DNA of 64,000 nt from Gemmatimonadota bacterium (GTDB taxonomy: Bacteria > Gemmatimonadota > Gemmatimonadetes > Palauibacterales > KS3-K002): the NCBI GenBank assembly GCA_020350785.1, contig CP070722.1, positions 1,668,611 to 1,732,610 on the forward strand. The letters are read 5' to 3'. Below are positions 1-15,641 of the stretch, one piece after another. Every line of letters starts with the position of its first letter. The first letter of the stretch is position 1. A program made the translations under genes and the position numbers. The notes under the pieces were generated by a model. The model ran no database searches and was not told the DNA's origin. It saw only the letters and a program-made list of their open reading frames with translations.

Positions 1-1
1 A

Positions 2-1951
2 GAACGTGCGCCGTCACCGGGTGCCGATGGGCAGCAGTCGCTCGCACACTATTCTTTGGGAATCGCGTTCAGGGCACGCGGATTCTACGGAGAGGCGCGT
101 CAAGAGTTCGAGCGTGGCCGCGCGGTCGGCGAGGAAGTGGATCTAATAGATCAGGCCGAGGCTGAGCTTGCGCTGCTCGATAGTGATGCGCAGGTAGCAC
201 TGGCGCGATACGATGCGCTTCTTGCACGCTCCGGCGGTAACTGCAAGCTGTGGAACGAGCGCGGGGTGACTCTACACTTGCTCGGTCGGTCGGGCGAAGC
301 CGAGGCGAGTTACCGTGAGGCGCTGAAACTCGACGGCGATTACGCCCTGGCCTGGAACAACGTGGGTGTACTGAGCGTGTATTGCGGTGACAGCCGGGGT
401 GCTGAAGAAGCCTTTGGCCGGGCGCTTGGGTGTCGACCGGATCTCGATGACGCGCGCTTCAACCTGGGCTTGCTCCTGGTTGCGACCGGCCGGGCGGACC
501 GTAGTCTGAGGATCTACCGCGAGATTCTCGAATCCGATGGGGGAAGGGCGGAAGCGTGGAACAGGCTGGGGGCAGCGCTGATGGAGCTGGATCGTGTAAG
601 GGAGGCCCGCAACGCGTTCGCGCGTGCCGTCGAGGCGGATCCGAGTCTGGCGTCGGCTCGGTATAACCTCAGCTTCGCTCTGGCGCGGCTGGGCGATCAC
701 GACGGCGCACTGAGGGAAACGAAGCAGGCGCTGGAGCTCGACCCCTACTATACAGCGCCGCGCTATAGGCTGTCGATCGACTTGCAGTACGAAGGCGGGG
801 AAGTCTGGGCGCCGGAGCTGGCGGCGCCTGAACGGTTGGAAGCTAGGGGGCCTGGCGTACGAGAGTTCGAGTTCGATCCGGCTGAACTCGCACAGGTATT
901 CGAAGAACTCGATTCGGTTGAACCGGAGGCTGGAGACAGGCGAGCGGGCGACCTGTTCCGCCTAGCTCGCGACAACCTGGAGAATGGACTTTACGATCGG
1001 GCGCTGTCGGAAGCGGTGCGCGCGCTGCGCGAGGATGGCGACTCTGCGGAGGGGGCGCTGATCATCGCCGAGGTGTACAGGCAGCGCGGGCTCTACGGCG
1101 AGGCACTGGAGCGGTTTGAGGAAGCGCGCTCGATTCGGCCCGGCAATCCGGAGGCGCTTGCGGGTGTCGTGGGTTGCCTGCTGCGGCTGGATCGGGCAGC
1201 GGAGGCCCGCGAGGTGGCCGAGGAACTGCAACCGCTGGCCGCTTCCAGCGTCGGGCACTTGCTTGTTGTGGCAGAGGCGTTGACGAGCACGGGTGAAGCC
1301 AAGCGAGCGATCGAGGTTCTTGGCGTTGCGAGCGAACATGCTCCGCACGATGCGGTCGTGCATCGCCAGATCGCTAAGGCCGCACTGGCGGCCGGGAATC
1401 GACGGCGGGCGCGCGAGGCATATCGGAGGGCTATTGCCGAGGATCCCGATTTCACGGCGGCTCGCGTCGAGTTGGGCCGGATGTTGATGGAGGAAGGGGC
1501 ATACAGCGAAGCGGAGGGCGAGGTCCGTCAGGCATTGGAGCTGGTGCCCGCCTATGCCGAAGCCAACTTCGTGCTCGCCGAGGTCCTCAGCCGGCAGGGT
1601 AAGACACGCGAGATCATCAATCTGCTGGCGGGTTTCTTGGAGGCCGAACCATTCAACCTTGACGCTTTGATGCTGCTCGGGGAAGCGCTAGGCAGAGAGG
1701 GGCGACGCAGGGAGGCGGAGCAGGCGCTGCGGATGCTGCTGCGATTCGATCCGGAGCGGCCGGCCGCTCTGTTCCGCCTCGGCGAGTTGGCATCGGAGTC
1801 GGGCCGTCACGAGGAAGCTCTTGGTTGCTGGCGGAGGCTCGTCGACCTCGACCCGGAAGGCGAGTACGCCACGCGGGCCAGACTAAAGGCACGAGCAGCC
1901 CGACGACTGGGCGGCGGCTTCGACGAGTTTACCGCAGGGAGTGGCGCCTGA
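2..1951 (+). CDS. TPR-repeat protein. The ORF is open to the window edge, so the 5' end is probably partial; the first in-window start is TTG at 56.
   Basis: Translation is rich in TPR-like helical repeats (recurring A/L/G/Y/E heptads, many 'EA...L..DP' units). There is no in-frame stop upstream of position 56, and the N-terminus reads like the middle of a repeat. The stop overlaps the start of the next gene (ATGA). Confidence 0.6.
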   Translation, partial: ERAPSPGADGQQSLAHYSLGIAFRARGFYGEARQEFERGRAVGEEVDLIDQAEAELALLDSDAQVALARYDALLARSGGNCKLWNERGVTLHLLGRSGEAEASYREALKLDGDYALAWNNVGVLSVYCGDSRGAEEAFGRALGCRPDLDDARFNLGLLLVATGRADRSLRIYREILESDGGRAEAWNRLGAALMELDRVREARNAFARAVEADPSLASARYNLSFALARLGDHDGALRETKQALELDPYYTAPRYRLSIDLQYEGGEVWAPELAAPERLEARGPGVREFEFDPAELAQVFEELDSVEPEAGDRRAGDLFRLARDNLENGLYDRALSEAVRALREDGDSAEGALIIAEVYRQRGLYGEALERFEEARSIRPGNPEALAGVVGCLLRLDRAAEAREVAEELQPLAASSVGHLLVVAEALTSTGEAKRAIEVLGVASEHAPHDAVVHRQIAKAALAAGNRRRAREAYRRAIAEDPDFTAARVELGRMLMEEGAYSEAEGEVRQALELVPAYAEANFVLAEVLSRQGKTREIINLLAGFLEAEPFNLDALMLLGEALGREGRRREAEQALRMLLRFDPERPAALFRLGELASESGRHEEALGCWRRLVDLDPEGEYATRARLKARAARRLGGGFDEFTAGSGA

Positions 1952-3084
1952 TGCCGATCGAGGGGACACTGCGCGAGTTCGCCCTGCCCGACATCTTTCA
2001 ATTGCTAAATATGTCACGCAAGTCGGGGGAGCTGGGTATCGTGCAGTCGCCGTCGGGTGTACGCGGAGCAGTGCTGTTCAGCGATGGAGCAGTGATAGAT
2101 GCTCGGTTGGCCGACACGCCCTCACGTTTGGCGTACATGCTTCTGAACGCCGGTAAGATCAGCGAGGCGGAACTACGCAAGGCGGAGCGAACGCACGCTA
2201 AGAACCCTGCACAAAGTTGGAAGGAGATATTCCGAGGATTGGGATCGGTTGCCACGGAAGACTTGGATGAATACGCCAGGTTCGAGGTTGAGGAGCATAT
2301 CTACGAGATCCTCGACTGGCGCGATGGCCATTTCGTTTTCAGCGAGCGATCGATCGCGAATTCAGAGCGCGTTACATTCATTCCGGTCGAGTCGCTGCTG
2401 ATGGAGGGGGCACGGCGTGCAGATGAGCTTTCCGCCCTTGGCGCCTCGCTCGAAGGTTCGGCGGCGATTCCCAGATTGGCAGAGCAGGCGGCGACGGACA
2501 CAGGCGTGATCGACTTGTCGCCTGAAGAGTGGGAGATCTTGGGTCGAGTCGATGGGGTGGCCAACGTGAGGACGCTCTCCTGGACGCTGGGTCGGAGCGA
2601 ATTCGAGGTGAGTAAGGCCATCTCGAGCTTGGTCGCCAAAGGCATCTTGGAGTTCGGCTCGCGTCGGGAAGCGATCGCTCCCGAGCGACAGGAAGACGTA
2701 CTCGGTCAAGCGGCAGAGCTGATCGAGCGAGACGAGATGCAGGCGGCGAGAGTTCGGATCGATTCCGCGCCGAAGAGAGGGCAAGATGAGCCTCGTGCGC
2801 AATACCTAGCAGCGCTCGTGTTGGAGCGGGAGGGCGATTTGCGCGGAGCGGAGCGAGGCTACGAGGGGATTCTAAGACTCGATCCATTAGCGCACGAGGC
2901 CCGGAAGCGTCTGGGCCTGGTGCGCCTCAAGCTGGGTGACATAGCTGGTGCCGCGCGGTCGTGGGAGTTCTGTCTCCAGGCCGCCTCCGACGCCGCCGAG
3001 CGCGAGCGGTTTGAGCGGGGGTTGAGAGCGCTGCGTGAGCTACAAGCTCTAATCCATGAGATCGATGACCGGGAAAACTCGTAG
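1948..3084 (+). CDS. DUF4388 (PATAN-like) domain protein with C-terminal TPR repeats
   Basis: The N-terminus MPIEGTLREFALPDIFQLLNMSRKSGELGI...VLFSDGAVIDA is the characteristic DUF4388/PATAN signature. The C-terminal third is TPR-like. The ATG overlaps the upstream stop (ctgATGcc), indicating translational coupling. Confidence 0.7.
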   Translation: MMPIEGTLREFALPDIFQLLNMSRKSGELGIVQSPSGVRGAVLFSDGAVIDARLADTPSRLAYMLLNAGKISEAELRKAERTHAKNPAQSWKEIFRGLGSVATEDLDEYARFEVEEHIYEILDWRDGHFVFSERSIANSERVTFIPVESLLMEGARRADELSALGASLEGSAAIPRLAEQAATDTGVIDLSPEEWEILGRVDGVANVRTLSWTLGRSEFEVSKAISSLVAKGILEFGSRREAIAPERQEDVLGQAAELIERDEMQAARVRIDSAPKRGQDEPRAQYLAALVLEREGDLRGAERGYEGILRLDPLAHEARKRLGLVRLKLGDIAGAARSWEFCLQAASDAAERERFERGLRALRELQALIHEIDDRENS

Positions 3085-3880
3085 GTCGTTGCAGGAGTTG
3101 AGCGCTGAAGTCGCAACGAACCCGGGTTCCACTGCGTTCGTGGAGCTTGCCGAGGCCTACCGTGAGCGGGGCGACACGGAACGGGCGTTGCGGCTGTGCC
3201 TGCGAGGGCTGCAACGGCACCCGACCCACGCGGCGGCGCACTACGAGCTCGGACGCATTTACGAGGCGCGGAGTGAGCGGGAGCTGGCGTTGGATGAGTT
3301 TGGAATCGTTCGCCAGCTGGCGCCCGATCATCTGCCGGGCCGTCTCGCGATCGCACGGCTCTACCTCGAGGAAGGTCGGCTCGAGGATGCCGAGCGCGAG
3401 TTGAACCGAGCGGGCCGCCTCGGGGAGAGGGAGCCTGCGATCGCCGCGCTGCGGAAAGAGCTCGCAGCTGCTCGCGCCGAGGAGGAGCTGATCCGAGCTT
3501 CAGCGCCCGAGCCGGAGCGCAGGTCGCTTGCGACGCTGGCGGAGGAGCATCCGGGAACACTCGGCATCCTACTGGTGGATGGCGATGGTCAGCTGATTGA
3601 CGGGGAGATGAAGGCCGGGGAATTCGAGTCAGGGCGCATGCTGGCTGTAACGCTGAGTGGCGCGCGCAAGGAGTCTGAGCGGGTCGCGAGCCATCTCCAG
3701 TTGGGAAAGCTGAAGCGGATCGTGATTGAGAGTCCGGAGATTCGACTGACGGTGTCGCCTGCGACGCGGGGCTTTGTGGTGGTCGCCGCGCGCGGTGACT
3801 CTCCGCCTGGACAAGCGGAGCTGCTGTTGCGCCGTGCGCGGGAGCTGAGCGACCGAGAGACGCCGGAGGCGACGGGTTGA
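3056..3880 (+). CDS. TPR + Roadblock/LC7 (MglB-like) fusion protein
   Basis: There are N-terminal TPR repeats. The C-terminal region GTLGILLVDGDGQLIDGEM...GRMLAVTLSG...LKRIVIESPEIRLTV fits the Roadblock/LC7 fold pattern. The gene overlaps the upstream gene's end and its stop overlaps the next start. Confidence 0.6.
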   Translation: MRSMTGKTRRSLQELSAEVATNPGSTAFVELAEAYRERGDTERALRLCLRGLQRHPTHAAAHYELGRIYEARSERELALDEFGIVRQLAPDHLPGRLAIARLYLEEGRLEDAERELNRAGRLGEREPAIAALRKELAAARAEEELIRASAPEPERRSLATLAEEHPGTLGILLVDGDGQLIDGEMKAGEFESGRMLAVTLSGARKESERVASHLQLGKLKRIVIESPEIRLTVSPATRGFVVVAARGDSPPGQAELLLRRARELSDRETPEATG

Positions 3881-4233
3881 AGACGGTCTACGCCGATCTA
3901 TTGAGGGAGATCATGCGCATGCCCGGCGTGCGAGGAGCGATCGTCGTCGCTGTGCGGGACGGGTTGGTCGTAGATGGACGTGTTCATGTTGGAATACGAA
4001 GTGATGCTGTCGCTGCGCTTGCGGCATCGCTCTTTCAGCGAGCGCTCCGCTCGACGGAGACAGGTAGGGAAGAGAGGCGGTTTGTCGAACTGGAGGCCGA
4101 CCGCGGCCGCATCATGATGGCGGGGGAAGGTGAGTTGGCCTTAATGGCCATACTTGAGCCCAGAGCCAACGCGGGTCAGGCGCGTTTGGCGATTCAGCGA
4201 GCGGCAACGGCGCTTGCGGGAGGCGGGGGGTAG
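3877..4233 (+). CDS. Roadblock/LC7 domain protein (MglB-like)
   Basis: 118 aa. The sequence MKTVYADLLREIMRMPGVRGAIVVAVRDGLVVDG...AALAASL...LEADRGRIMMAG is the canonical Roadblock/LC7 pattern. The start overlaps the upstream stop (GTTGA). Confidence 0.7.
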   Translation: MKTVYADLLREIMRMPGVRGAIVVAVRDGLVVDGRVHVGIRSDAVAALAASLFQRALRSTETGREERRFVELEADRGRIMMAGEGELALMAILEPRANAGQARLAIQRAATALAGGGG

Positions 4234-4239
4234 CGCTGG

Positions 4240-4728
4240 ATGCGGGGTCTCAAGCTGCGGCAGATCCAGGACACCTTTTCCGAACCGCTACAGGGATTCG
4301 TGCGTGATTCCGGGGTCAGGTCGTCAGTGTTGATCAACCGCAGTGGGCAGGTGCTCGCGCAACACGGTTTCGACAAGGTATTCGATCTCGTGGGTGTCGC
4401 TTCTCTTGCTGCCGGTATCAACGCGTCGAGCCGAGCGCTGGCCAGGCAGTTGGGGGAGGATGAGTTTGAGCACCTGCATCATGCTGGACGGTCTCGTCAG
4501 CTGTTCCTCGGACACTTCGAGGCGGCTGGGGGTCAGCTCATGCTTGTAGCCGTGTTCGATGAGCGCTCCTCGATCGGCCTGGTGCGTCTGTTCTTCGAGC
4601 AATTCGTTGCCAACCTGCGCGAGTTGCCCGAAATGCAGATTGTGCGGCCGGCGGAGAATGCGAGGGATTTCGAGGCTGATCTGGAGTCGAGCCTCGATCG
4701 ATTTTTCAGGGATCTGATAGGCGGTTGA
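4240..4728 (+). CDS. Roadblock/LC7-like protein (third paralog, divergent)
   Basis: 162 aa. The sequence VRDSGVRSSVLINRSGQVLAQHGFD...VGVASLAAGINASSRALARQLGE...LMLVAVFDERSSIGLVRLFFEQF matches the Roadblock topology. The stop is 1 nt before the mglA ATG. Confidence 0.5.
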   Translation: MRGLKLRQIQDTFSEPLQGFVRDSGVRSSVLINRSGQVLAQHGFDKVFDLVGVASLAAGINASSRALARQLGEDEFEHLHHAGRSRQLFLGHFEAAGGQLMLVAVFDERSSIGLVRLFFEQFVANLRELPEMQIVRPAENARDFEADLESSLDRFFRDLIGG

Positions 4729-4729
4729 T

Positions 4730-5368
4730 ATGTCGCTGGTGAACTACGCGACGCGGGAGATCACCTGCAAGATCGTCTACTACGGCCCGGGGCGGTCGGG
4801 CAAGACGACGAATTTGCAGTACGTATACAGCCGTGTGCCATGGAACCGGAAAGGCGAGATGGTTTCGTTGGCGACCGACTCGGACCGCACGCTTTTCTTC
4901 GATTTTCTGCCCTTGGAGTTGGGTCGGATATCCGGGTTCACGACGCGTTTTCAGCTGTACACGGTGCCGGGACAGGTTTACTACAACGCGACGCGCAAGC
5001 TAGTACTCCAGGGAGCTGACGGGGTAGTATTCGTAGCCGACAGTCAGCGATCACAGTTCGCTGAAGATATCGAGTCGTTCCGTAATCTTCAGGAGAATCT
5101 GTTGGAGCATGGCATCGACATCCGCGAGATCCCGGTCGTGATTCAATACAACAAACGGGACCTGCCCAACACATTCAGCGTCGCATACTTGGAGGAGGAG
5201 CTTAACTTCCGCAATGTGCCCAGTTTTCCGGCCGCCGCACTCCACGGGAAAGGGGTGTTCGACACGCTCCGATCGGTCAGCGAGGGGGTGTTGAGAAAAC
5301 TGGCCAGGAAGCTCAATGGCTCGACGGATGCGATCACACCAGAGGTTGACCGTGCCGGTAAACGTTGA
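4730..5368 (+). CDS. mglA: Ras-like polarity GTPase MglA
   Basis: Near-colinear match to my memory of Myxococcus MglA: CKIVYYGPGRSGKTTNLQYVY (P-loop), DSDRTLFFDFLPLELG (intrinsic Arg), YTVPGQVYY (switch II Gln), VIQYNKRDLP (G4 NKxD). Length is 212 aa. Confidence 0.9.
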   Translation: MSLVNYATREITCKIVYYGPGRSGKTTNLQYVYSRVPWNRKGEMVSLATDSDRTLFFDFLPLELGRISGFTTRFQLYTVPGQVYYNATRKLVLQGADGVVFVADSQRSQFAEDIESFRNLQENLLEHGIDIREIPVVIQYNKRDLPNTFSVAYLEEELNFRNVPSFPAAALHGKGVFDTLRSVSEGVLRKLARKLNGSTDAITPEVDRAGKR

Positions 5369-5375
5369 CCCACGG

Positions 5376-6536
5376 ATGACCTTCTTTTCCTTTGTGGTCG
5401 GTCCGGAGAATCGGCTTGCCTGGGAGGCGGCGCGCACGGCGGCTGAATCACCAGGATCTGCCTACAATCCACTCTTCATTTACAGCCATACCGGGCTGGG
5501 CAAGACGCACCTGCTGGTGGCCATCGCTAACCGAGCCAGCGAGCTTCAGCCCGACATTGCAGTTGTTTATACGCCGGTCGAGCAACTATTGCGGGAGCTG
5601 GGTTCAGAATCGGGCGTAGAGGCAACCTACCACGGCGCCGAGATTCTACTCATTGATGATCTTCAATTCATCGGCCACCACAGCGACGACCACCGGGTCC
5701 TTTTCTCCTTACTCGATGACCTGTTGATGAGAGGCAGGCAGGTGGCGCTTGCCTGCGATCGGCCGCCTCTGGAGTTGGGAGAACTGGATGATCGGCTACT
5801 CTCGAGGTTCAGCGGTGGGCTGGTTGTCGATATCGGCCGCCCGGTGCTCGAGACGCGCAAGGCTATACTGGAAGCTCGTCTGGCTGCCGCCGATCTGAGA
5901 CTGCAACCTGAGGTCGTTGATGCGATCGCGCGCTTGGCGTCAGAGAACGTTCGGCAACTCAACGGTGCGCTCAATCGAGTCCTCGCGGCTCAAGAAGTGG
6001 AAGGGCGCGAAGTCCGACCGGATGAGGTGGATGGCCTACTGGTCGAACTCGTGGGCGATGCCGACCTTCCCTGGCTGGCGGACGGTCGCCGCGGCGACGA
6101 GAGCGAGTTCCAGAGTTTCTTGACCGACGTGTCCTCTGCTGTCGAGCGAGCTCTGACGACCCCGAAGTGGCATGAAGATGTGGCGCGAGCGATCCTCAAG
6201 TGGGAGGCGGAAGGCTACTCGACTCGGCGCTTGGAACAGTTGCTGGAGGACGAGAAGCCGGTCGATTCCGAGCACGAGGTCGCGGCCTACGAACAGGATA
6301 TCGAAACTCTCAGGGGTCTGCAGCGCGACTTTGACCAGTTGCAGGTCCAGGTGCCGAAAGATCTGTCTTTCAAAGATCCGGCTGCGATCCCCCAGCTGCG
6401 AGCGTTGTTGGAACGGTTGCGCCGCACCGCCCTCGCCGTGGACGACTACTTCCTTGACCCGGAGAAGGTCATCTGGGACTGGCCTGTGTTCGATCAGAAG
6501 TTCATGGAGAGCTGGGACGATGGCGATCAAAGGTAG
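5376..6536 (+). CDS. DnaA-like AAA+ ATPase paralog (DnaA domain III only; the domain IV HTH appears absent and is replaced by an acidic C-terminal domain)
   Basis: Motifs seen: FSFVVGPENRLAWEAA...NPLFIYSHTGLGKTHLL (DnaA box VII/Walker A), LLIDDLQF (Walker B), LACDRPP (sensor I), SRFSGGLVVDIGRPVLETRKAIL, and NVRQLNGALNRV (sensor II). The C-terminal ~150 aa has no DnaA signature (HTH/DNA-binding) motif. The ATG at 5376 is 8 nt after the mglA stop, and the stop overlaps the next gene. Confidence 0.75.
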   Translation: MTFFSFVVGPENRLAWEAARTAAESPGSAYNPLFIYSHTGLGKTHLLVAIANRASELQPDIAVVYTPVEQLLRELGSESGVEATYHGAEILLIDDLQFIGHHSDDHRVLFSLLDDLLMRGRQVALACDRPPLELGELDDRLLSRFSGGLVVDIGRPVLETRKAILEARLAAADLRLQPEVVDAIARLASENVRQLNGALNRVLAAQEVEGREVRPDEVDGLLVELVGDADLPWLADGRRGDESEFQSFLTDVSSAVERALTTPKWHEDVARAILKWEAEGYSTRRLEQLLEDEKPVDSEHEVAAYEQDIETLRGLQRDFDQLQVQVPKDLSFKDPAAIPQLRALLERLRRTALAVDDYFLDPEKVIWDWPVFDQKFMESWDDGDQR

Positions 6537-8145
6537 CCTGAAAGAGGCAAGCCTTCCCGACGTTCTCCAGCTCCTGGCCATGGGAGGCAAGACTGGCTGT
6601 CTCTCAGTGACGGACCGGCAGAGCTTCGGCTACGTGTATCTGGAAGAGGGTCGGGTCATCTACGCATCGCTGTTTAACCGCCGAGACCGTCTGGGGGACA
6701 TCCTCGTTCGCGAGGGCGTGGTCACGCGCGAGCAAGTCGAAGAAGCCTTGGTTGAGCAGAATCAGAAGAAGGATGGCCGGCGGATCGGCGACATTCTAAA
6801 GGATCGGGGGGAGATCGATCAGGCGGTTCTGGAACGTTATGTGGGGCACCAGGTCGAGGAAGCTGTTTATCAACTATTTGCCTGGAGCCAAGGCACCTTC
6901 TACTTCGAGCCTGCACAATCGCCGGAAGACGAGACCATCCTTGTTTCGATCGATACGGAGAGCCTTCTGCTGGAGGGCGCGCGCCGGGTTGACGAGTGGA
7001 GTCAGATTCAGAAGAAGATCCCGTCGTTCGAGCTGATATACGCTCTCGATCCGGACCGTTCGTTGTCCATATCCTCGCTGGACTTGAGCGCTGAACAACA
7101 GAAGATACTTCCCTATCTCGATGGCAGGCACAGCGCCTGGGAGATAATCGAGCTCACCGCCATGAGCGACTTCGGTCTCGGCAAAGCGCTGTACGGACTG
7201 ATCGCGGCGGGTCTGGTGCGACGCGTGGGCCGGCGCGAACGGCAAGCCGAGCGACCCCAGATACAGGCGCGGGTGCGAGAGCACAAGAACCTGGGGATCG
7301 CCTTCTACAAGACGGGTCTTTACGAGGAGGCTCTGAGGGAGCTGGAGAGGGTACGCGAGTTGGATCTGGATGACTTGGAAGCCGACTTCTGTCTCGCGCT
7401 TGTGGAGCTGCGGCGCGGTAAGCTAGAAGACGCGGGTCAAGCGCTCATGGGGATCAGAAAGCGCGGTGGCAGTTGTGCCGCGCTCTTCAACAATCTAGCT
7501 CTCGTCTACGATGGACTAGGAAGGCGGTCGCAGGCGATGTCGCTAATTGATGAGGGTTTGGCGAGGCACGAAGGCCATCCGAGGCTCGTGCTCACCAAGT
7601 CGATGCTTCTGCTCAAGCTCGGCAACACGGCGGAGGCACGGGAAGCGCTCGACCGGTACTTGGAGAAGGTGGAAGAGCCCGAGCCGCTGTACTACTCGAC
7701 TCGAGCTCTGGCCGAGGCCATGTCGGCCGACATCGCCTCGGCGACCGTGACCGCGTTAGCGGGCTTAGCCAAGCATCCGAATGAGGCAGCACTGAGCAAC
7801 AACGCCGGAGTAATACTGGAAAGGGATGGTGACCTGAGTCGAGCTCGGTCAATGTATCAGAGGGCGCTCGATTTGAATGGTGACTTGCCTCAGGCATCGA
7901 AGAACCTCGGCGACCTGCTCTACCGCGAGGGGGAGTACGATGATGCGGCCCGTGCCTACGAACAGGCCTTGCGGGTGGATCCTCAGCTCGGCGACGACAT
8001 CTACGCGAGACTGGGTAATATCTATTACAAGGCTGGGGGGAGGGAAATAGCGATCGAGATGTGGGAGAAGGCGCTCCAGCTCAACCCGGCCAATGAAGTG
8101 GTGCGAACGAACCTGGAGTTTGTGAAGGGGGCGATTCGTGAGTGA
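6520..8145 (+). CDS. DUF4388 (PATAN-like) domain protein with C-terminal TPR repeats (second paralog)
   Basis: The N-terminus MAIKGSLKEASLPDVLQLLAMGGKTGCLSVTD...VYLEEGRVIYA parallels gene 1948-3084. The remainder is TPR-like. The start overlaps the end of the DnaA-like gene. Confidence 0.7.
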   Translation: MAIKGSLKEASLPDVLQLLAMGGKTGCLSVTDRQSFGYVYLEEGRVIYASLFNRRDRLGDILVREGVVTREQVEEALVEQNQKKDGRRIGDILKDRGEIDQAVLERYVGHQVEEAVYQLFAWSQGTFYFEPAQSPEDETILVSIDTESLLLEGARRVDEWSQIQKKIPSFELIYALDPDRSLSISSLDLSAEQQKILPYLDGRHSAWEIIELTAMSDFGLGKALYGLIAAGLVRRVGRRERQAERPQIQARVREHKNLGIAFYKTGLYEEALRELERVRELDLDDLEADFCLALVELRRGKLEDAGQALMGIRKRGGSCAALFNNLALVYDGLGRRSQAMSLIDEGLARHEGHPRLVLTKSMLLLKLGNTAEAREALDRYLEKVEEPEPLYYSTRALAEAMSADIASATVTALAGLAKHPNEAALSNNAGVILERDGDLSRARSMYQRALDLNGDLPQASKNLGDLLYREGEYDDAARAYEQALRVDPQLGDDIYARLGNIYYKAGGREIAIEMWEKALQLNPANEVVRTNLEFVKGAIRE

Positions 8146-8203
8146 TGCGGCGCTTCGAACGCCGCCACTGGAGATCGACGAAGGACGCAGCTAGTTCTCT
8201 CTC

Positions 8204-9178
8204 ATGAGCGAAGGGGCTCGATGCGTCGCTTGGCTGGCTATCCCGATCTTGTGGTCGGTGGCTGCGGGTCAGGGCGGCCCGCAGGGCCAGGTCCGGGTGG
8301 GCGCCGTGACACTCCATTACTGGCCCGGCCAAAGGGCTGCGGCGGAGGCGCTGGCGGCTGGGCTTGAGCAACCCGTGCCTATGCCGGGGCTACCCGAGGA
8401 TATTCTGGCCGGGGGCACGATCACCGTCTACCTGGCTCCGGATCCACAGACGTTCGACTCGCTCGCGCCCGGGGTACCCGATTGGAGTGGAGCTATAGCC
8501 TTTCCGGAGGGCGACGAGATCGTTCTGCCGGTATTCTCCTCCCGCGGGGGTGGAGTCCCGCTGGCGGTGGTGCTCCAGCACGAATTGGCGCACGTGGCGT
8601 TGAGCCGGTACCTGGGGAGGCGAGTACCGCGCTGGTTTCACGAGGGCTACGCTCAACTGGCGTCCGGTAGCTGGGGGTCCGAAGACGCCTGGGCGCTGAG
8701 GTTCGCCATCCTGCTGGGCAAGCTGCCCTCGCTCGAGGCGATCGATCTGGAATTTCGCGAGGGGCGCGTGCGGGCCGATCACGCGTATCTTCTTTCCCAC
8801 ACTGCGGTCGAGCACCTCTATCGTCTGGGCGGGAAAGCCGGTTTCGCGCGGTTGCTGGAGCGCTGGCGCGAGGTCGGAGAACTCGACCTTGCCATGCGAC
8901 GCACCTACGGGTTGACCCAGGGCCAATTCGAGCGGACCTGGCGACGCGAAGTGGGGCGCCGGTTCGGTTGGCTGCTTGTACTGACCCAGACGATCGTATT
9001 CTGGACGATGTTGACGATCATTCTGCTCGTTCTGGGGTACTGGAAGAAACGGCGGACGCGTCGCAAGCTGGTGGCTCTGGAGGCCGCGGTGGCGGCGGCT
9101 GAGGCGGATGCGCTTGCCAATGCGGCCTTAGATCGAGGTGCTGATTTGGCTGATGAAGGCGTAATTGACGGGCCGTAG
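8204..9178 (+). CDS. Membrane-anchored Peptidase_MA_2-like (HEXXH) protein
   Basis: Signal-like N-terminus; HELAHVALSRYLGRRVPRWFHEGYAQLAS (HExxH...E zincin-like motif shared with gene 58983-61625); C-terminal TM segment (LLVLTQTIVFWTMLTIILLVLGYW) followed by an Ala-rich tail. Confidence 0.5.
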   Translation: MSEGARCVAWLAIPILWSVAAGQGGPQGQVRVGAVTLHYWPGQRAAAEALAAGLEQPVPMPGLPEDILAGGTITVYLAPDPQTFDSLAPGVPDWSGAIAFPEGDEIVLPVFSSRGGGVPLAVVLQHELAHVALSRYLGRRVPRWFHEGYAQLASGSWGSEDAWALRFAILLGKLPSLEAIDLEFREGRVRADHAYLLSHTAVEHLYRLGGKAGFARLLERWREVGELDLAMRRTYGLTQGQFERTWRREVGRRFGWLLVLTQTIVFWTMLTIILLVLGYWKKRRTRRKLVALEAAVAAAEADALANAALDRGADLADEGVIDGP

Positions 9179-9204
9179 GCGCTGGGATAGCTTACTAGCC
9201 GTTC

Positions 9205-9495
9205 ATGCCAGAGGTAGATCCACGACGACGAAGCGGACGCGGGTCGCGAGCGGCCCGCGAGAGGACTAAGGCTGAGCGGATGGGTAGTCCGGCACGAGCT
9301 ACGGGGAATGGGCCCGGGCCACGCGCACTGCAGTTCACACGGCTCAACTGGGTGCTGCTTGGCGGAGGCGTGGTTCTCATTGTGACTGGCTATGCGGCTC
9401 TGGGGAGAAGCTCACCGCTCCTGTCGACAGTCCTGGCGCCGCTACTTCTGGTCGGGGCCTACGCGGTCCTGATCCCGCTGGGCCTGATACGCTGA
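9205..9495 (+). CDS. Small hypothetical membrane protein (basic N-terminus, two predicted TM helices)
   Basis: ORF with hydrophobic C-terminal half (WVLLGGGVVLIVTGYAALG...LAPLLLVGAYAVLIPLGLI). No recognisable family, and the start is uncertain. Confidence 0.3.
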   Translation: MPEVDPRRRSGRGSRAARERTKAERMGSPARATGNGPGPRALQFTRLNWVLLGGGVVLIVTGYAALGRSSPLLSTVLAPLLLVGAYAVLIPLGLIR

Positions 9496-9556
9496 GGTCG
9501 GCTCGGCCTAACGGCGCGTTGGCCGGGTAGAAACTGTAGTCGGGCTCAGGACTCGC

Positions 9557-9630
9557 GGGCGCGTAGCTCAGCTGGCGAGAGCGCTGCCCTTACAAGGCAG
9601 AGGCCCCTGGTTCGAGTCCAGGCGCGCCCA
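9557..9630 (+). tRNA. tRNA-Val (anticodon TAC), no encoded CCA
   Basis: GGGCGCGTAGCTCAGCTGGCGAGAGCGCTGCCCTTACAAGGCAGAGGCCCCTGGTTCGAGTCCAGGCGCGCCCA folds as a cloverleaf: 7-bp acceptor stem GGGCGCG/CGCGCCC, anticodon stem CTGCC/GGCAG with loop CTTACAA (anticodon TAC), and a T-arm GGTTCGAGTCC. Confidence 0.9.
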
Positions 9631-9754
9631 TTGCAGGCTGGCAAGAGACGCGGCTGAACTGGCTGGCTCGGTTGGCCGACGTGGACCGAAGATCGGGAAC
9701 TTCATTTCGCGGGTGGCGCCCGCGGGGAAGCACCCTAGTCTTGGAGATCAACTC

Positions 9755-11500
9755 ATGAAGCTCGAGATCACCGCTCGCATAGCAGTAGCCCGTGTGGCTC
9801 TCGCGGCAGCGACCCTCGTCGTACTGCTTTTGCCGCCCCTCGCCCGTGAGTCGCAGGCTGCCGGCCAGCAAGAGCCTGGGGGACGTTTCCGCGTTCTCGT
9901 GGTTCCGTTGGAATCCAGCGCGCTCGACAAGAAATTCGGTGGTAAGGTAGCTGACGAGATCCGAAAGCGGCTCGAGGATTTTAGCACTCACGCCCCGATA
10001 CCTGTGAAGGAGTACTCGCGCGCGCTCAAGCAGTACGAGGTCAAGGAAGAGGAGCTGAACGCGATCAAGGCGAGGCAGCTTGCAAATCTGATGGGCGCGC
10101 AGGTTGCCTTCTACGGGACGATCGAAGCCGCCGGGGGAGCCTATCGGGCAGACGGCGTCTTCATCGGCGTGCAGAGCGGTGATGAGCTCCACGTGCCTGC
10201 CGTCACGATTAGTGACAAGAGCAACGAGTCGGTGAGCAAAGTAGCGGATGCGGCGATCGCCGCCTTTCAGCAGCAGGTGCAGTTCGACCGAGCTGTGACT
10301 TTCTGCGCCGACTACGTGGGGAGCCAGCAGCCCGAGAACGCGATCCGCAACTGCAATGAGGCCCTGGCGATCAACCCGGGCAGCGTGCCGGCGCTGTTCA
10401 ACAAGGGGCTAGCCTTTCGCCAGATGTTCGAAGGCGAGACGGCTGGCACGAATGGCTGGGCGGACTCGGCGGTCCACTACTTCGAAAGGGTGCTCGAGGT
10501 TCAGCCGGGCAAGCGCGAGGCCATGCAGAACGCGGCCTACATCTACTCCAAAGTGGGTGCGGCCGAGAAGGCCAGCGAGCTTTACAAGCAGTACCTGGAG
10601 CTGGATCCCGGTAATGTCCCGGTTCGCCTCAAGGTCGCCTACGACCTGGCGCAAGCGGAACTGATGGTCGAGGCCATCGAGATCATCCAGGCCGGCCTCG
10701 AGTTCGCCGAGGAAGACGTCGACCTCCTGCAGTCGCTGGGCGACTACTCGCTCCGCTACTCGTCGCAGGATTCCACCTATCTGGACACGGCCCTGGAGGC
10801 CTACGAGAAGGTGTTGCGGGTCAAGGGTGAGGAGACCGATCTGACCATCCTCGTGAACGCGCTGGCCGCCTACACGCAGGCAAACCGGACCGATGAGGCG
10901 ATCGCCTTCGCCGAACGCGCCCTCCAGTCACACTCGGACAGCCCACGGCTGTGGGCGGTTTACGCCGACGCGCTTGGCCGGAAGGAGAGGTACAGAGAGG
11001 CCAGCGCGGCGATGGACAAGGTGCTGGAACTCGATCCGTCTTATGCCAACGCCTACCTCAAGCGAGGTCAGTTCAAACTGCGCGCCGGCGATGAGGCCGC
11101 CGGGATGGCCGACTTCACCAATGCGATCGAAAGTGGCAGCTCCTCACAGGACGACGTCTTCCGCTTCTTCTGGGGTGAAGGCCACGCGGCGCGCAACGAG
11201 AAGGATTACTCTAAGGCGATCTCAGAGTTTGAGCGGGCCAACCGTTTCGTGGAGGCGAGCCAAAGGCGCGAGCTGGAGTTCTGGTGGGCTTACACCTACT
11301 ACCAGCTTGGGGAGCAGCAGGCGACCCCGGAGGGTGCCGGCGTCAGCCAGCTGAACCGGGCGCAGTCCAACTTCCAGGCGGCGGTTGATCATTTCGAGCG
11401 AGCGGGCAACGTGAGGGCCGAGGTTGCTCAGCTAAAGGATGCGGCTGACAAGTGGCTGCTCAATATCGATGCCCGAATCAGGCGGGCGCAGCGCGGCTAG
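9755..11500 (+). CDS. Secreted/lipoprotein-like TPR-repeat protein
   Basis: MKLEITARIAVARVALAAATLVVLLLPPLA is a signal peptide. The body is TPR-rich (AYDLAQAEL..., AYLKRGQFKLRAGDEAAG...). The upstream in-frame ATG at 9713 is also possible. Confidence 0.6.
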   Translation: MKLEITARIAVARVALAAATLVVLLLPPLARESQAAGQQEPGGRFRVLVVPLESSALDKKFGGKVADEIRKRLEDFSTHAPIPVKEYSRALKQYEVKEEELNAIKARQLANLMGAQVAFYGTIEAAGGAYRADGVFIGVQSGDELHVPAVTISDKSNESVSKVADAAIAAFQQQVQFDRAVTFCADYVGSQQPENAIRNCNEALAINPGSVPALFNKGLAFRQMFEGETAGTNGWADSAVHYFERVLEVQPGKREAMQNAAYIYSKVGAAEKASELYKQYLELDPGNVPVRLKVAYDLAQAELMVEAIEIIQAGLEFAEEDVDLLQSLGDYSLRYSSQDSTYLDTALEAYEKVLRVKGEETDLTILVNALAAYTQANRTDEAIAFAERALQSHSDSPRLWAVYADALGRKERYREASAAMDKVLELDPSYANAYLKRGQFKLRAGDEAAGMADFTNAIESGSSSQDDVFRFFWGEGHAARNEKDYSKAISEFERANRFVEASQRRELEFWWAYTYYQLGEQQATPEGAGVSQLNRAQSNFQAAVDHFERAGNVRAEVAQLKDAADKWLLNIDARIRRAQRG

Positions 11501-11680: not shown

Positions 11681-11752
11681 ATGCAGGCTGCGCCCATCGT
11701 GTGGCCCGGAATCCCGCCGACTGGGCTTACAGTGACTTGCCGGGGAGGGAAC

Positions 11753-12184
11753 TTGACCGGCTTTTTGGGGAGCTACCTCCATCAGCTGGACGAGAAGGGC
11801 CGCCTTGCGCTGCCGGCGTCTTTTCGCCGGGCAGCGGGTGAGGCGGGCTTTGTCCTGATCCATGGCCACGAGACGGCTTTGTTGCTTTACCCGCAGGCCG
11901 CTTGGGGGAAGGTGGAGGAGCGACTGGCCGAGCTGCTTCAGCGGCAGCCCGAGTCGAAGGCCTCCGTGCTTCGGCTCACGGCGAATGCGGTCGAGGTCAC
12001 GCCTGACAAACAGGGCCGGATTCTGGTGCCCGAGCGTCTTAAGAAAGCTGCCAAACTCGACTCGGAAGCACTGATTGTCGGGGTGCTGGACAAGATAGAG
12101 ATCTGGAACCCCGAGCTGTTTGAGATGACCACGAAGGAAGCGAGACCGGGGTTCGAGCAGTTCGTGCGACAGATCCTCGTGTGA
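11753..12184 (+). CDS. mraZ: Transcriptional regulator MraZ
   Basis: FLGSYLHQLDEKGRLALPASFRR and a second half ...QGRILVPERLKKAAKLDSEALIVGVLDKIEIW give a duplicated DxxGR MraZ motif. The long ORF starts at 11681; I prefer TTG 11753, preceded by GGGGAGGGA. Confidence 0.85.
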   Translation: MTGFLGSYLHQLDEKGRLALPASFRRAAGEAGFVLIHGHETALLLYPQAAWGKVEERLAELLQRQPESKASVLRLTANAVEVTPDKQGRILVPERLKKAAKLDSEALIVGVLDKIEIWNPELFEMTTKEARPGFEQFVRQILV

Positions 12185-12370
12185 GGCTTCGGGCTCGACG
12201 GAGATGGGGAGTGGTGTGTTGGGCGGGGCGGTGGCGTCAAAGCCATCGACCGTCGACCCCGTCTGAAGGGACGGTGGGCAGGTGGCAGGGGGAGGGCTGT
12301 GTGGGGTCTAGGGGTAGGGCAAGGCCGTCTGTCCACCGTCTCTCTATAGGTCGCGACGAAGGAATGAGAT

Positions 12371-13321
12371 TTGGCGTGGGGCGCGTCGGAGGGGGTCTTG
12401 AGCGCCTTCCATGAACCGGTCTTGCTGACCGAGGTCGTGCGCCTGCTGGCGCCGGAGCGCGGCGGTGTGTTTCTGGACGGGACCGTGGGTGGTGGCGGCC
12501 ACGCCGAGGCGATCCTGAGAGCGGGCACGGGTGTTCGTCTGCTGGCGCTGGACCGGGACGCAGAGGCGCTGGAGAGCGCTAGAGACCGGCTGCGGTCCTT
12601 CGCGGGGAGAGTCGAGTATCGAGAGGGCGATTTCGCAGAAACGGCGGACTTGTTCGGTCTGGGGGAGGGCGCATTGGCTGGAGTACTGTTGGACCTGGGG
12701 GTGTCCTCCCACCAGATCGATCGGTTGGAGCGGGGCTTCACTTTTCGAGCGGGGGCCCCGTTGGACATGCGGATGTCGCGGAGAAGTTCGACCACGGCGG
12801 CGGAGCTGCTGGAGGCGGCGACGGCGGAGGAGCTGGGTGAGATATTCCGGACCTACGCCGAGGAGCGACGGGGCCGGCGGCTGGCCGCGGGCTTAGTCGA
12901 GGCGCGGCGACGGAAACCCCTGCGGAAGAGCGACGACCTGATCGAGGCGATCGAGGCAGTTTGGGGACGCCGGGTGGCGGAGTCCGATCTGGCCAGGATT
13001 TTCCAGGCGTTGCGGATTGCCGTGAATCACGAGCTGGATTCGTTGGGAGCGGGGCTTCCGGTTCTCCGCGATCTACTGCAGCCTGGCGGTCGCCTGGTAG
13101 TCATCTCGTACCACTCGCTGGAGGATCGGCTGGTCAAGCGAGCATTCCGTGAGTGGGGCCGCGATTGCGTCTGTCCGCCCGGGCTGCCCGAGTGCCGGTG
13201 CCGCGGGCGCGCCTTGGGACGAGAGCTTACGAGGAAGCCTGTGAGACCTGAAGCCGCAGAGACGGACCGGAACCCACGTGCGCGGAGCGCGCGGCTGCGT
13301 GCTTGGGAAAGTGCTGGATGA
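12371..13321 (+). CDS. rsmH: 16S rRNA (cytosine1402-N4)-methyltransferase RsmH (MraW)
   Basis: HEPVLLTEVVRLL...FLDGTVGGGGHAEAIL...LLALDRDAEAL...GVLLDLGVSSHQID...GRLVVISYHSLEDRLVK are RsmH signatures. It sits in the expected dcw position. Confidence 0.9.
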   Translation: MAWGASEGVLSAFHEPVLLTEVVRLLAPERGGVFLDGTVGGGGHAEAILRAGTGVRLLALDRDAEALESARDRLRSFAGRVEYREGDFAETADLFGLGEGALAGVLLDLGVSSHQIDRLERGFTFRAGAPLDMRMSRRSSTTAAELLEAATAEELGEIFRTYAEERRGRRLAAGLVEARRRKPLRKSDDLIEAIEAVWGRRVAESDLARIFQALRIAVNHELDSLGAGLPVLRDLLQPGGRLVVISYHSLEDRLVKRAFREWGRDCVCPPGLPECRCRGRALGRELTRKPVRPEAAETDRNPRARSARLRAWESAG

Positions 13322-13620
13322 GACTGCGCGGCCTGTTCACGGCTTTCTCTGCGATGCTGCTCCTTGCCGGAATGTTTGTGGCTGTGCACAGGGGGGCTCG
13401 GGGACGTGAGCTCGCGCAAGGTATCAGTGACCTGGACGATCGACAGGAAGCGGTGGACTTAAAGCGACAAGATCTCGAGGCGCGGATCGCGCATCTGAGC
13501 AGCCGACCGAGAATAGAGCGTGCTGCGAGGGATCTAGGATTTCACACTCCCAGTGAAGAGGAGTTGGTGGTTCTCGATCTGCGTCGTCGTACGTCGCGTG
13601 CCGGAGGAGGTTCGCAGTGA
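13303..13620 (+). CDS. ftsL: Cell division protein FtsL-like
   Basis: About 100 aa with one TM (LFTAFSAMLLLAGMFVAVH) followed by a coiled coil (LDDRQEAVDLKRQDLEARIAHL). Positioned between rsmH and ftsI; overlaps both neighbours. Confidence 0.6.
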   Translation: MGKCWMRLRGLFTAFSAMLLLAGMFVAVHRGARGRELAQGISDLDDRQEAVDLKRQDLEARIAHLSSRPRIERAARDLGFHTPSEEELVVLDLRRRTSRAGGGSQ

Positions 13621-15641
13621 GATCGGAGCTTCGCCAGGTTCGACGTCGTCATCTCAGGCATGGCGTGCTGCAGATCTCGCTGCTGCTGGGGACCGTGGTT
13701 GTGCTCGGCCGTGCTTTTCAGCTTCAGGTCGTCCAGGCAGAGAGATGGCGCGACTTGGCGGTACAGAATCACACGGTGAACGTGGGGCTGCCGGCGCCGC
13801 GCGGTGCCATCTTCGATCGACACGGTCGCGAACTGGCCGTCAGCCGCATCAGCTATGACCTCTACGTGGCGCCGAACGAGCTCGAGGACCCAGAAGCGGC
13901 CCTCCCGCTACTGAGGGAGGTAGCGGAGCTGCCGGCCAAGCATGCGAAGTGGATTCGGGAGGGGAAGCCTGTTTGGGTCAGACTGGCGAGGCGCATCTCT
14001 GAAGCGGAGAAGGACGAGCTGGAGAAGGTCTTGAGGAAAGGCTTGCATCCGGAACCGGTCGCCGAGCGCCGCTATCCGCTGAGTCGTCTGGCGGCGGAGA
14101 TCGTCGGCAGCGTGGGCGAGGGCGGGCGGGGGCAGAGTGGGCTGGAGCTCAGCTTCGATTCGCTGCTCACCGGTCAACCAGGCACGGGAATCAGGCGACG
14201 GGATGCAAAGGACGAATCGGCGGCCTGGCCGGTCGTCCCTGTGGTTGCACCGACGGCGGGCCACGACCTGTACCTGACGATTGACGCCGAGCTGCAGGCG
14301 CTGGCCGAGTCGGTGCTGGAGGGGGCCATCGTTGAGACCGACGCCAGCGGCGGCGATCTGGTGATCTTGGAGCCGAGTAGCGGTGAGCTGCTCGCCGTAG
14401 TCAGCCGCAGGAGAGGCCGGCGGATCCAGAATCTGACGGCGGTCACGGAACCTTATGAGGCGGGCTCGACGCTCAAGCCGTTCACCGCCGCGGCCTTGCT
14501 GGCGGAGGGGCTGGCGAAGCTGACGGACATTGTCGATACGGGCAACGGCAGGTACCGGGCGGCCGGCCGGACGATCCGGGACGACAACCCGCGTGGGCGT
14601 CTGTCGCTGGCTCAGACACTGGCCGTGTCGAGCAATGTTGGCATGGCGTTGTTCGCCGAGCGATTGCCGGAGGGCGTTCAGTATAGATACCTGCGCGATT
14701 TCGGGTTCGGCACCCCGACCGGCCTGGCCTACCCGTCTGAATCGGGTGGTCTGCTGCGCAAGCCGTCACAATGGTCGAAGCAAAGTCGCGCCTCACTTGC
14801 CATCGGCTATGAGGTGTCCGTTACGCCGCTCCAGCTAGCGCTAGCGTATGGGGCGTTGGCGAACGGTGGCCTGCTGATGCGGCCACAACTGGTTCGGGAG
14901 GTTCGCGGTCCGGAGGGCCAACTCCGCTGGAAAGGTGAAGCGGAGGTGGTGCGCCGGGCGATTGATGAAGACGTGGCGTCGCTGCTACGTGACGTGCTGG
15001 TCGAAGCGGTCACGCAGGGCACAGGGCGAAGCGCCGATGTCCAGGGAGTGCGCGTGGCGGGCAAAACGGGAACCGCCTGGCGCTTCGATCGCGAGCGCGG
15101 TTACGCGGGCCACACCTATACTTCGTCGTTTGCGGGGTTGATACCTGCAGAGCAGCCGGAGTGGGTGATGCTGGTCAAGCTCGATGCGCCGAGTGGGCAG
15201 TATTATGGCGGGGCCACAGCAGCCCCCGTCATGCGCACCGCAGTGCGCGCTGCGTTGGCAGGGAGCTACTGGTCGGCGCCGCCCTTGCTGGGGGAACCGG
15301 AGTCTCCTGGCGAGCAGGCGGGAATACCTGCGTCTCGCGTGGCGGCCAGCGGCCCTTATGTCTTCGCTCTCGATGCCCCGCTGCTGAGGGCGAGTGAGGA
15401 GACTGCTTGGGATGAGCGAGGATCGGAAACTGTCGTTCCGGAAATACGGGGTCAGTCGTTACGAGCGGCGGTTCATCAGTTGCATCAGGCGGGCCTACAA
15501 GTTGTTGCACGTGGAGGTGGACGTGTGGTTTCGGTCGAACCGGGGGTGGGGGTCAGGCTTCATCGGGGAGCGCGAGTGGTCATCGTCGGCGGTGAGCGCG
15601 CTTCTCCCCCAGCGACTGACCGGCTGGCAGGTGAGGGATGA
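13617..15641 (+). CDS. ftsI: Peptidoglycan D,D-transpeptidase FtsI (class B PBP) with C-terminal PASTA domain
   Basis: N-terminal TM; SxxK (GSTLKPF), SSN (VSSNVG) and KTG (AGKTGTA) motifs. The C-terminal segment VVPEIRGQSLRAAVHQLHQAGLQVV...GARVVIV is PASTA-like. Confidence 0.9.
   Translation: MRSELRQVRRRHLRHGVLQISLLLGTVVVLGRAFQLQVVQAERWRDLAVQNHTVNVGLPAPRGAIFDRHGRELAVSRISYDLYVAPNELEDPEAALPLLREVAELPAKHAKWIREGKPVWVRLARRISEAEKDELEKVLRKGLHPEPVAERRYPLSRLAAEIVGSVGEGGRGQSGLELSFDSLLTGQPGTGIRRRDAKDESAAWPVVPVVAPTAGHDLYLTIDAELQALAESVLEGAIVETDASGGDLVILEPSSGELLAVVSRRRGRRIQNLTAVTEPYEAGSTLKPFTAAALLAEGLAKLTDIVDTGNGRYRAAGRTIRDDNPRGRLSLAQTLAVSSNVGMALFAERLPEGVQYRYLRDFGFGTPTGLAYPSESGGLLRKPSQWSKQSRASLAIGYEVSVTPLQLALAYGALANGGLLMRPQLVREVRGPEGQLRWKGEAEVVRRAIDEDVASLLRDVLVEAVTQGTGRSADVQGVRVAGKTGTAWRFDRERGYAGHTYTSSFAGLIPAEQPEWVMLVKLDAPSGQYYGGATAAPVMRTAVRAALAGSYWSAPPLLGEPESPGEQAGIPASRVAASGPYVFALDAPLLRASEETAWDERGSETVVPEIRGQSLRAAVHQLHQAGLQVVARGGGRVVSVEPGVGVRLHRGARVVIVGGERASPPATDRLAGEG

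Follow-up and report, generated by a model that had tools for sequence, protein, structure and literature searches.

Gene content of the locus

The genes considered here encode three Roadblock/LC7 proteins and an MglA-type small GTPase and lie in a window of 64,000 nucleotides (nt), the whole stretch analysed, from the metagenome-assembled genome of a Gemmatimonadota bacterium (assembly GCA_020350785.1, contig CP070722.1, positions 1,668,611 to 1,732,610 of the forward strand); coordinates below are those of the window. The Roadblock genes, termed RB1, RB2 and RB3, and mglA follow each other on the same strand (+), tightly packed over positions 3056-5368, with RB1 carrying tetratricopeptide repeats (TPRs) in addition to its Roadblock domain (aa, amino acids):

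3056..3880, + strand: RB1, TPR-Roadblock fusion, 274 aa (Pfam TPR hits; Robl_LC7 28.1 bits)
3877..4233, + strand: RB2, single-domain Roadblock, 118 aa (Robl_LC7 38.2 bits)
4240..4728, + strand: RB3, predicted MglB orthologue, Roadblock core with C-terminal extension, 162 aa (Robl_LC7 39.0 bits; MglB matches)
4730..5368, + strand: MglA, predicted Group-1 small GTPase, 212 aa (1.7e-75 to M. xanthus MglA)

All three Roadblock proteins exceed the Pfam gathering score of Robl_LC7 (PF03259), 23 bits, which served as the threshold for the three calls. The Roadblock fold, alpha-beta-beta-alpha-beta-beta-beta-alpha, was found in RB1 and RB2 by AlphaFold2 modelling and Foldseek comparison (template modelling (TM) scores of 0.7-0.84 against solved Roadblocks) and is predicted for RB3 from sequence homology to solved MglB, and is thus present in each of the three and not in a single one. 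The original prediction, made from the letters and their open reading frames, of three tandem Roadblock genes, one of them fused to TPRs, immediately upstream of mglA is borne out. The end of RB1 and the start of RB2 share 4 nt (TTGA), and a GGAGG sequence lies 8 nt upstream, while RB2 and RB3 are separated by a spacer of 6 nt and RB3 and mglA by a spacer of 1 nt. The start codon of RB1 at 3056 gives the protein of 274 aa; the NCBI start at 3065 gives 271 aa.

A predicted MglB beside its cognate MglA

The gene at 4730-5368 matches Myxococcus xanthus MglA at 1.7e-75 over residues 1-193, and its translation contains G21, R53-T54, T78-V-P-G-Q82 and the L55/F56/F57/F59 patch. R53/T54, TVPGQ, Gln82 and the L55/F56/F57/F59 patch are features of Group-1 MglA and its interface with MglB (PMC3199381, PMC4316618). 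By these motifs the protein is a Group-1 MglA with the TVPGQ G3 motif, a predicted intrinsic arginine finger beside the G2 threonine and the catalytic glutamine. At 212 aa, its C-terminus is about 17 residues longer than that of M. xanthus and Thermus thermophilus MglA (195-196 aa); the extra tail is weakly conserved among relatives and overlaps the start of the AAA+ ATPase gene that follows.

As judged from its sequence, RB3 is a canonical MglB orthologue, cognate to the adjoining MglA. In phmmer searches it matches solved MglB of M. xanthus (1.9e-13) and T. thermophilus (4.8e-12), and hhalign against M. xanthus MglB gives a probability of 97.6% and an E-value of 4e-12. Its sole NCBIfam match is the MglB model NF052242 over residues 13-156, with 58 bits, which is under the narrow equivalog cut-off of 200. 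RB3 residues A62/A66 correspond to A64/G68 of M. xanthus MglB and A68/A72 of T. thermophilus MglB; they are invariant in the close family and A/A in all three lineages aligned. Arginine substitution of this pair (A64R/G68R; A68/72R in T. thermophilus) weakens MglA binding tenfold and abolishes MglB's GTPase-activating protein (GAP) function (PMC3199381). The nearly invariant C-terminal motif FEAELExSLDRFF of RB3 aligns with the region of the C-terminal helix of M. xanthus MglB, which mediates allosteric nucleotide exchange (PMC11016934). Far from being highly divergent, as had been proposed for the third gene, this orthodox MglB is the best conserved of the three Roadblock proteins, with a mean pairwise distance of 0.24; RB2 is at 0.33, and the RB1 Roadblock domain, at 0.66, is the fastest-evolving segment of the conserved gene block to which the trio belongs.

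Two additional Roadblocks of a generic type

Pfam TPR profiles match RB1 within residues ~10-140 (TPR_19 8e-11, TPR_17 6.2e-9, TPR_2 1.5e-7, also TPR_14 and TPR_1), corresponding to about three TPRs at the N-terminus, and Robl_LC7 matches residues 162-242. The AlphaFold2 model calculated with the family alignment (predicted local distance difference test (pLDDT) of 90) displays an eight-helix TPR solenoid at residues 12-149 (nt ~3089-3502), and a Roadblock domain with the complete alpha-beta order given above at residues 157-267 (nt ~3524-3856). Foldseek relates the latter to Asgard Roadblock3, LAMTOR2/p14 and T. thermophilus MglB (target TM 0.7-0.8); CTPR and OGT TPR structures are likewise among the top matches of RB1. 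Of the two parts of RB1, the TPRs evolve at about half the rate of the Roadblock domain. The RB1 family comprises about 90 clusters, and those with a named source are all from Gemmatimonadota.

The AlphaFold2 model of RB2 (pLDDT 88, predicted TM score 0.82) has the same Roadblock topology as the RB1 domain, with Asgard Roadblocks and LAMTOR2 among its best structural matches in the PDB. Profile searches of the PDB retrieved Thorarchaeota/Asgard Roadblocks first (2.4e-6), with LAMTOR5 and MglB only at 0.05-0.2 (0.056-0.24 for the MglB entries). Across the wide RB2 family, PGVRG and AALAAxLxxR in helix alpha2 are invariant; alpha2, the helix that MglB uses for MglA binding, is the most conserved element of RB2. 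In a profile search beyond the phylum, the best 120 of 1719 matches all belong to this family, and the source-named ones among them all derive from Gemmatimonadota. RB2 of the main clade also contains an invariant DGLVVDGRVHVG strand-loop motif, which is lost in deep lineages.

By profile comparison, the Roadblock domain of RB1 and RB2 are sister paralogues, each other's closest relatives and of a generic, non-MglB type: hhalign aligns the two over the full domain at 9e-5, and neither reaches significance against the RB3 family (0.21 for RB1, 0.028 for RB2). An L-INS-i alignment of the RB1 domain, RB2 and RB3 from three lineages (32-50% identity) with M. xanthus MglB and MglC is gap-free over alpha2. 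At the positions of M. xanthus MglB A64/G68, RB2 of the three lineages has Q/R, Q/R and Q/Q, RB1 has K/R, E/R and Q/R, and MglC has T/N. In sequence, RB1 and RB2 thus naturally resemble the disabling A64R/G68R mutant of MglB, the small-residue patch for MglA docking being absent, and, given the lysine, glutamine or glutamate plus arginine at this site, RB3 alone among the three looks competent for docking of the MglB type. RB1, RB2 and MglC share an Asp-Gly pair of the generic Roadblock type, which is N-G in MglB and S-G in RB3. Where MglC has its FDI site (F25, D26, I28), RB2 has R27-D28-G29-L30, and at the KRR site of MglC (K104, R106, R110) it has Q101/R103/Q107, with R107 in most relatives; D-G-aliphatic and G-x-x-R are generic Roadblock features, and the aspartate is lost in some Longimicrobia-type members.

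Taken together, the assignment of the parts, with one MglA, one MglB and two additional Roadblocks, is highly probable.

Conservation and chemosensory context

The trio belongs to an eight-gene block in the order TPR0, PATAN1-TPR, RB1, RB2, RB3/MglB, MglA, DnaA-like AAA+ and PATAN2-TPR. Scanning genomes with the RB1 family as seed identified 28 Gemmatimonadota loci, each of which, where long enough, displays the same eight-gene order, and RB1-RB2-RB3 are collinear in at least 22 GTDB genomes. A metagenome scan seeded on RB3 patterns alone yielded 41 loci; as far as their upstream sequence is available, RB2 immediately precedes RB3 and RB1 in turn precedes RB2 in every case. All assessable related loci, about 70, from Gemmatimonadales to Longimicrobiaceae, have the trio in collinear order. 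In Longimicrobiaceae and another deep lineage the block is kept, with 4-nt overlaps at both Roadblock junctions; identity to the window proteins there is 70% for MglA, 41-50% for RB3, 37-44% for RB2 and 32% for RB1. When the window is compared with its closest relative, the ratio of nonsynonymous to synonymous substitution rates (dN/dS) amounts to 0.18-0.20 in the two halves of RB1, 0.11 in RB2, 0.15 in RB3 and 0.06 in MglA, and the trio is under purifying selection. The three Roadblock genes are translationally coupled and never found apart. As the gene order recurs in every sufficiently long related locus and dN/dS is 0.11-0.20, the arrangement is not due to chance.

Chemosensory genes flank the block on both sides in most relatives, with cheW-cheY-cheA-cheC/X upstream and cheR-cheD-cheB-cheW downstream. 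This setting and the conserved PATAN/TPR/AAA+ genes form the most important context, which the original prediction did not include. A variant locus (L024, 5610-7667; also L070 and L071) reads IleS-LspA-RluD-CheY(120 aa)-RB1-RB2-RB3-PepMA and is devoid of mglA, both PATAN genes, TPR0, the AAA+ gene and cheA; it was recovered in three independent assemblies from closely related or identical populations, and the absences concern this locus only. The three Roadblock genes and a cheY stay together there though the rest of the block is gone.

Neighbouring genes

The remaining members of the block and the site at which the source genome departs from its closest relative (locus L045) are as follows:

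1..1951, + strand: TPR0, large all-TPR protein, first gene of the block, cut by the 5' window edge (Pfam TPR repeats throughout)
1951..3084, + strand: PATAN1, DUF4388/PATAN domain followed by C-terminal TPRs (PF14332 6.9e-26)
5352..6536, + strand: DnaA-like AAA+ ATPase, directly after mglA (PF00308 2.5e-40)
6514..8145, + strand: PATAN2, PATAN with an insertion of the MshE-type c-di-GMP-binding kind, then TPRs, last gene of the block (PF14332 1.3e-39 and TPR hits)
8146..8148, no strand: junction without the cheR-cheD-cheB-cheW genes (3.3 kb in L045; blastn against L045 and L045 gene table)

The listed reading frame of TPR0, 56-1951 (631 aa), covers only the last two thirds, on the C-terminal side, of a protein of about 900 aa that extends beyond the 5' end of the window: the frame stays open as far back as nt 2, and the product aligns to the middle of the 899-aa orthologue of L045; TPR0 is collinear in all loci. 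PATAN1, directly upstream of RB1 across relatives, has its PF14332 match at residues 4-160 and weaker TPR matches at 281-354. The AAA+ gene follows mglA in all loci and here overlaps its 3' end. Its product matches TIGR00362 over positions 102-339 only and under the cut-off, and consists of the Bac_DnaA domain with about 150 further C-terminal residues, without the DNA-binding domain IV. The Longimicrobiaceae homologue (L041, 9489-11138) has 549 aa and two Bac_DnaA matches.

A helical insertion in PATAN2 (residues 59-113, nt ~6688-6852) matches NF053729, an MshE-related domain for cyclic di-GMP (c-di-GMP), with 47.5 bits against a cut-off of 38 and contains two tandem motifs resembling RLGxxLVxxGxVxxxxVxxxLxxQ, the PATAN1 copy being degenerate. 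This domain match suggests an input of c-di-GMP into the module.

About 3.5 kb downstream of the block, the division and cell wall (dcw) cluster extends over 11681-28697 with mraZ, mraW, ftsI, murE, murF, ftsW, murG, murC, ftsA and ftsZ and then an M23 peptidase gene; division genes and the polarity module thus lie close together here. A scan of the rest of the window revealed no pilus or motility genes, with only the dcw cluster and housekeeping genes present, and RomR, RomX and RomY were not seen in the block.

Proposed mechanism and alternative explanations

We propose, with a probability of about 0.5, that these genes specify the core regulators of a Group-1 MglA switch, in which MglB acts as the GAP and RB1 and RB2 contribute an accessory Roadblock layer. 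The RB3 homodimer would be expected to bind MglA-GTP via its alpha2 helices and to position Arg53 and Gln82 of MglA for hydrolysis, and its C-terminal helix region could add an allosteric exchange-promoting activity as in M. xanthus MglB. RB1 and RB2 may pair into another Roadblock dimer, in the simplest case the RB1:RB2 heterodimer, which would stack on or tether the MglB dimer in the way that MglC is placed between MglB and RomR or the LAMTOR layers under the Rag GTPases. The TPRs of RB1 would serve as a docking arm linking the GAP complex to the CheY of the operon, the PATAN-TPR proteins or a polar landmark as candidate partners, and the chemosensory pathway could thereby set the place and time of MglA switch-off. 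That RB1 and RB2 act as adaptors coupling the GAP MglB to such partners is a tentative assignment, with odds at or just short of even. The fullest version, a Ragulator-like platform of RB1:RB2 on the MglB homodimer in which the RB1 TPRs receive phosphorylated CheY or a PATAN-TPR protein so that chemosensing directly gates the GAP, seems rather unlikely.

A number of observations weigh against the proposed core and its accessory layer. In RB3, the switch-I contacts N37 and R98 of M. xanthus MglB are replaced by S35 and Q99 (by D in distant lineages); these two residues tune the GAP rate of M. xanthus MglB (PMC11016934), and with their replacement the predicted GAP strength of RB3 is not guaranteed. 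On the surface through which MglB contacts MglA, RB3 retains the A62/A66 patch and lacks N37/R98, while RB1 and RB2 have no patch. No significant hhalign match was found between RB1 or RB2 and M. xanthus MglC (sequence verified against PDB 7CT3), with E-values of 0.13 and 0.35 over short segments, and MglC 7CT3 is neither among the RB2 profile matches at E<=10 nor in the top 50 Foldseek matches; orthology of RB1/RB2 with MglC was rejected for want of significant profile similarity. A charge pairing of RB2 with MglB was also discarded as a general feature: RB2 is strongly basic in the main clade only (mean isoelectric point about 10), where all other proteins of the block are acidic, and is itself acidic in the two deep lineages. 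A mirror-tree comparison of pairwise distance matrices for eight proteins or domains from 19 taxa gave raw correlations of 0.62-0.95, which arise from shared phylogeny, and partial correlations favoured no Roadblock pair, including RB1-RB2 and RB2-RB3, which makes the comparison uninformative. MglB and MglC are homodimers in Myxococcus (PMC10329633), and the Asgard Roadblocks most like RB1 and RB2 crystallise as homodimers (PDB titles). Structure prediction was of monomers, and we infer both the RB1:RB2 contact and the contact with MglB. With respect to the chemosensory input, the source genome itself is without exactly the 3.3-kb cheR-cheD-cheB-cheW segment (L045 15082-18377) between PATAN2 and an M-A peptidase gene, as blastn at 82% nt identity aligns window 4-8145 with L045 6940-15081 and window 8149-10000 with L045 18378-20200; its upstream che half lies outside the window, which begins inside TPR0.

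The alternative that survives best, though still improbable, is that RB1 and RB2 form separate homodimers, RB2 as an MglC-like adaptor on MglB and RB1 as an independent TPR scaffold whose Roadblock domain merely dimerises. The characterised prokaryotic Roadblocks (MglB, MglC and those of Asgard archaea) are all homodimers (PMC10329633; PDB titles), the evolutionary rate of the RB1 Roadblock domain is double that of RB2 (0.66 vs 0.33), which fits a plain dimerisation module better than a co-evolving partner, and the mirror-tree gave no RB1-RB2 signal. On the other hand, the RB1 Roadblock domain and RB2 are mutually closest, always adjacent and often coupled by the 4-nt overlap, and paralogous Roadblock pairs of eukaryotes (LAMTOR2/3, LAMTOR4/5 and the C-terminal domains of RagA/C) are obligate heterodimers.

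Distinctly less probable is a hetero-oligomeric GAP or guanine nucleotide exchange factor (GEF), as suggested by the original prediction, with all three Roadblocks contacting MglA and RB1/RB2 acting for instance as a Ragulator-like exchange factor or an alternative GAP. Roadblock/longin platforms act on GTPases in several ways (PMC3747258); alpha2 with the invariant AALAAxLxxR is the most conserved part of RB2; and the Asp-Gly pair of RB1/RB2 is typical of the MglBs coupled to Group 2-5 MglAs, its aspartate being predicted at <5 A from MglA (PMC4316618). However, RB1 and RB2 carry lysine, glutamine or glutamate and arginine where arginine disables MglB (PMC3199381), and a GAP with all three on MglA is made unlikely by precisely these residues, Q/R in RB2 (Q/Q in one lineage) and K, E or Q followed by R in RB1. 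Moreover, the L024 lineage has the trio without an adjacent mglA. The companion suggestion of distinct roles encoded in cis fares better in one part: as the three genes are coupled and never apart, different roles are plausible, whereas a GEF role for RB1/RB2 is not supported, the exchange-promoting element in M. xanthus being the C-terminal helix of MglB itself (PMC11016934), a region kept in RB3.

Very improbable is a scenario in which RB1 and RB2 regulate another NTPase of the operon, the DnaA-like AAA+ ATPase or CheA, instead of MglA/MglB. The Roadblock superfamily has been broadly tied to NTPase regulation (Koonin and Aravind 2000, cited in PMC4316618) and the AAA+ gene always comes after mglA, but the L024/L070/L071 locus has the trio without the AAA+ gene or cheA and no earlier case of such a pairing came to light. 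That RB1 and RB2 are decaying mglB duplicates without distinct function, for which the fast evolution of the RB1 Roadblock domain might speak, is effectively refuted by conservation, with intact frames in about 70 loci, dN/dS of 0.11-0.20, invariant family motifs, retention across classes at only 32-44% identity and a relationship to MglB that is no closer than that to the Roadblocks of archaea or eukaryotes.

Comparison with known systems

With the MglA/MglB modules of M. xanthus and T. thermophilus the locus shares a Group-1 MglA with TVPGQ, Arg53 and Gln82, an RB3/MglB with the alpha2 small-residue patch and the C-terminal helix region, and the position of mglB directly upstream of mglA. 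It differs by two extra Roadblock genes, one TPR-fused, which here always precede mglB, by S and Q in place of N37 and R98 of M. xanthus MglB and by the PATAN/TPR/AAA+ block, mostly within a che operon. Besides systems with an MglA:MglB ratio of 1:1, a small Group-1 subset of 1:2 has been described, in which only one MglB co-evolves with MglA; PATAN genes are occasional neighbours, Gemmatimonas aurantiaca is listed only with two separate loci, MglB>MglA and PATAN>MglA>-PATAN, and in the organisms studied mglA lies apart from the genes of its signalling partners (Wuichet and Sogaard-Andersen 2014, PMC4316618). The 1:2 systems are alike in coupling a Group-1 mglA to more than one Roadblock gene, at times with PATAN genes nearby; here, three Roadblock genes, one of them TPR-fused, accompany one mglA (1:3), and this arrangement is fixed throughout a phylum-level clade, which extends the known 1:1 and 1:2 architectures. 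A search of the full-text literature for Gemmatimonadota together with MglA gave nothing beyond PMC4316618, and the fixed 1:3 architecture with a TPR-Roadblock fusion, in a PATAN/AAA+ block nested in a che operon, therefore appears to be undescribed, although the types of its parts are already known.

MglC of M. xanthus (PMC10329633) is likewise an extra Roadblock without the MglB patch (T/N in MglC; K/Q and R in RB1/RB2), and is not a GAP; aligned with its F25-D26-G27-I28, RB1/RB2 have an Asp-Gly-aliphatic segment, a generic Roadblock feature, and RB2 has an arginine at the position of R106. In contrast to MglC, RB1 and RB2 are two accessory Roadblocks and not one, without detectable specific sequence kinship to it; RB1 brings a TPR arm of its own where MglC has RomR, and both are encoded with mglBA where mglC lies elsewhere. 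In the RomR/MglC/MglB complex, which its authors likened to Rag/Ragulator, MglB and RomR lie on either side of the MglC dimer, and MglA-GTP breaks the contact between MglC and MglB (PMC10329633); what RomR/RomX do, and whether MglB serves as GAP or GEF, is being reconsidered in Myxococcus (PMC10329633; PMC13408092).

Actinobacterial conservons (CvnA-D) are also operons that pair an MglA-family GTPase with a Roadblock protein, the GTPase being of Group 2 there and of Group 1 here. Membership of the present locus was rejected, as Pfam detected no CvnA histidine kinase or DUF742/CvnC among the nine genes scanned.

In Ragulator, stacked layers of paralogous Roadblock dimers (LAMTOR2/3, LAMTOR4/5) constitute a platform for the Rag small GTPases. 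In structure comparisons, both the RB1 domain and RB2 have LAMTOR2 among their best matches (TM about 0.8). The likeness is one of fold and concept only, at 14-18% identity and without a LAMTOR1-like wrapping subunit, and RB1/RB2 are known here from genes and monomer models. Should an RB1:RB2 heterodimer indeed be stacked on MglB, prokaryotes would have a counterpart of the Roadblock dimer layers seen in Ragulator.

The Frz system of M. xanthus is a Che-type pathway coupled to the MglA/MglB polarity switch, with a single-domain CheY-like regulator as a candidate link. Its chemosensory route to MglA/MglB is still open in Myxococcus, where the molecular targets of FrzX and FrzZ are not known and the genes are scattered over the genome in separate loci, whereas in Gemmatimonadota che genes bracket the mgl block. 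There, one gene string unites the GTPase and its predicted GAP with the two obligatorily linked additional Roadblocks, both PATAN-TPR proteins, the AAA+ ATPase and, for the majority of genomes, a complete che set, and naturally reduced variants exist, a CheY with the three Roadblocks and a block without cheR-cheW; together these make up a defined parts list for reconstitution. If CheY or PATAN input gates MglB, the unresolved link from Frz to MglA/MglB would exist here in hard-wired form within a single gene string, and the block offers a small, naturally occurring system in which to study the route of chemosensory signals to a bacterial small GTPase.

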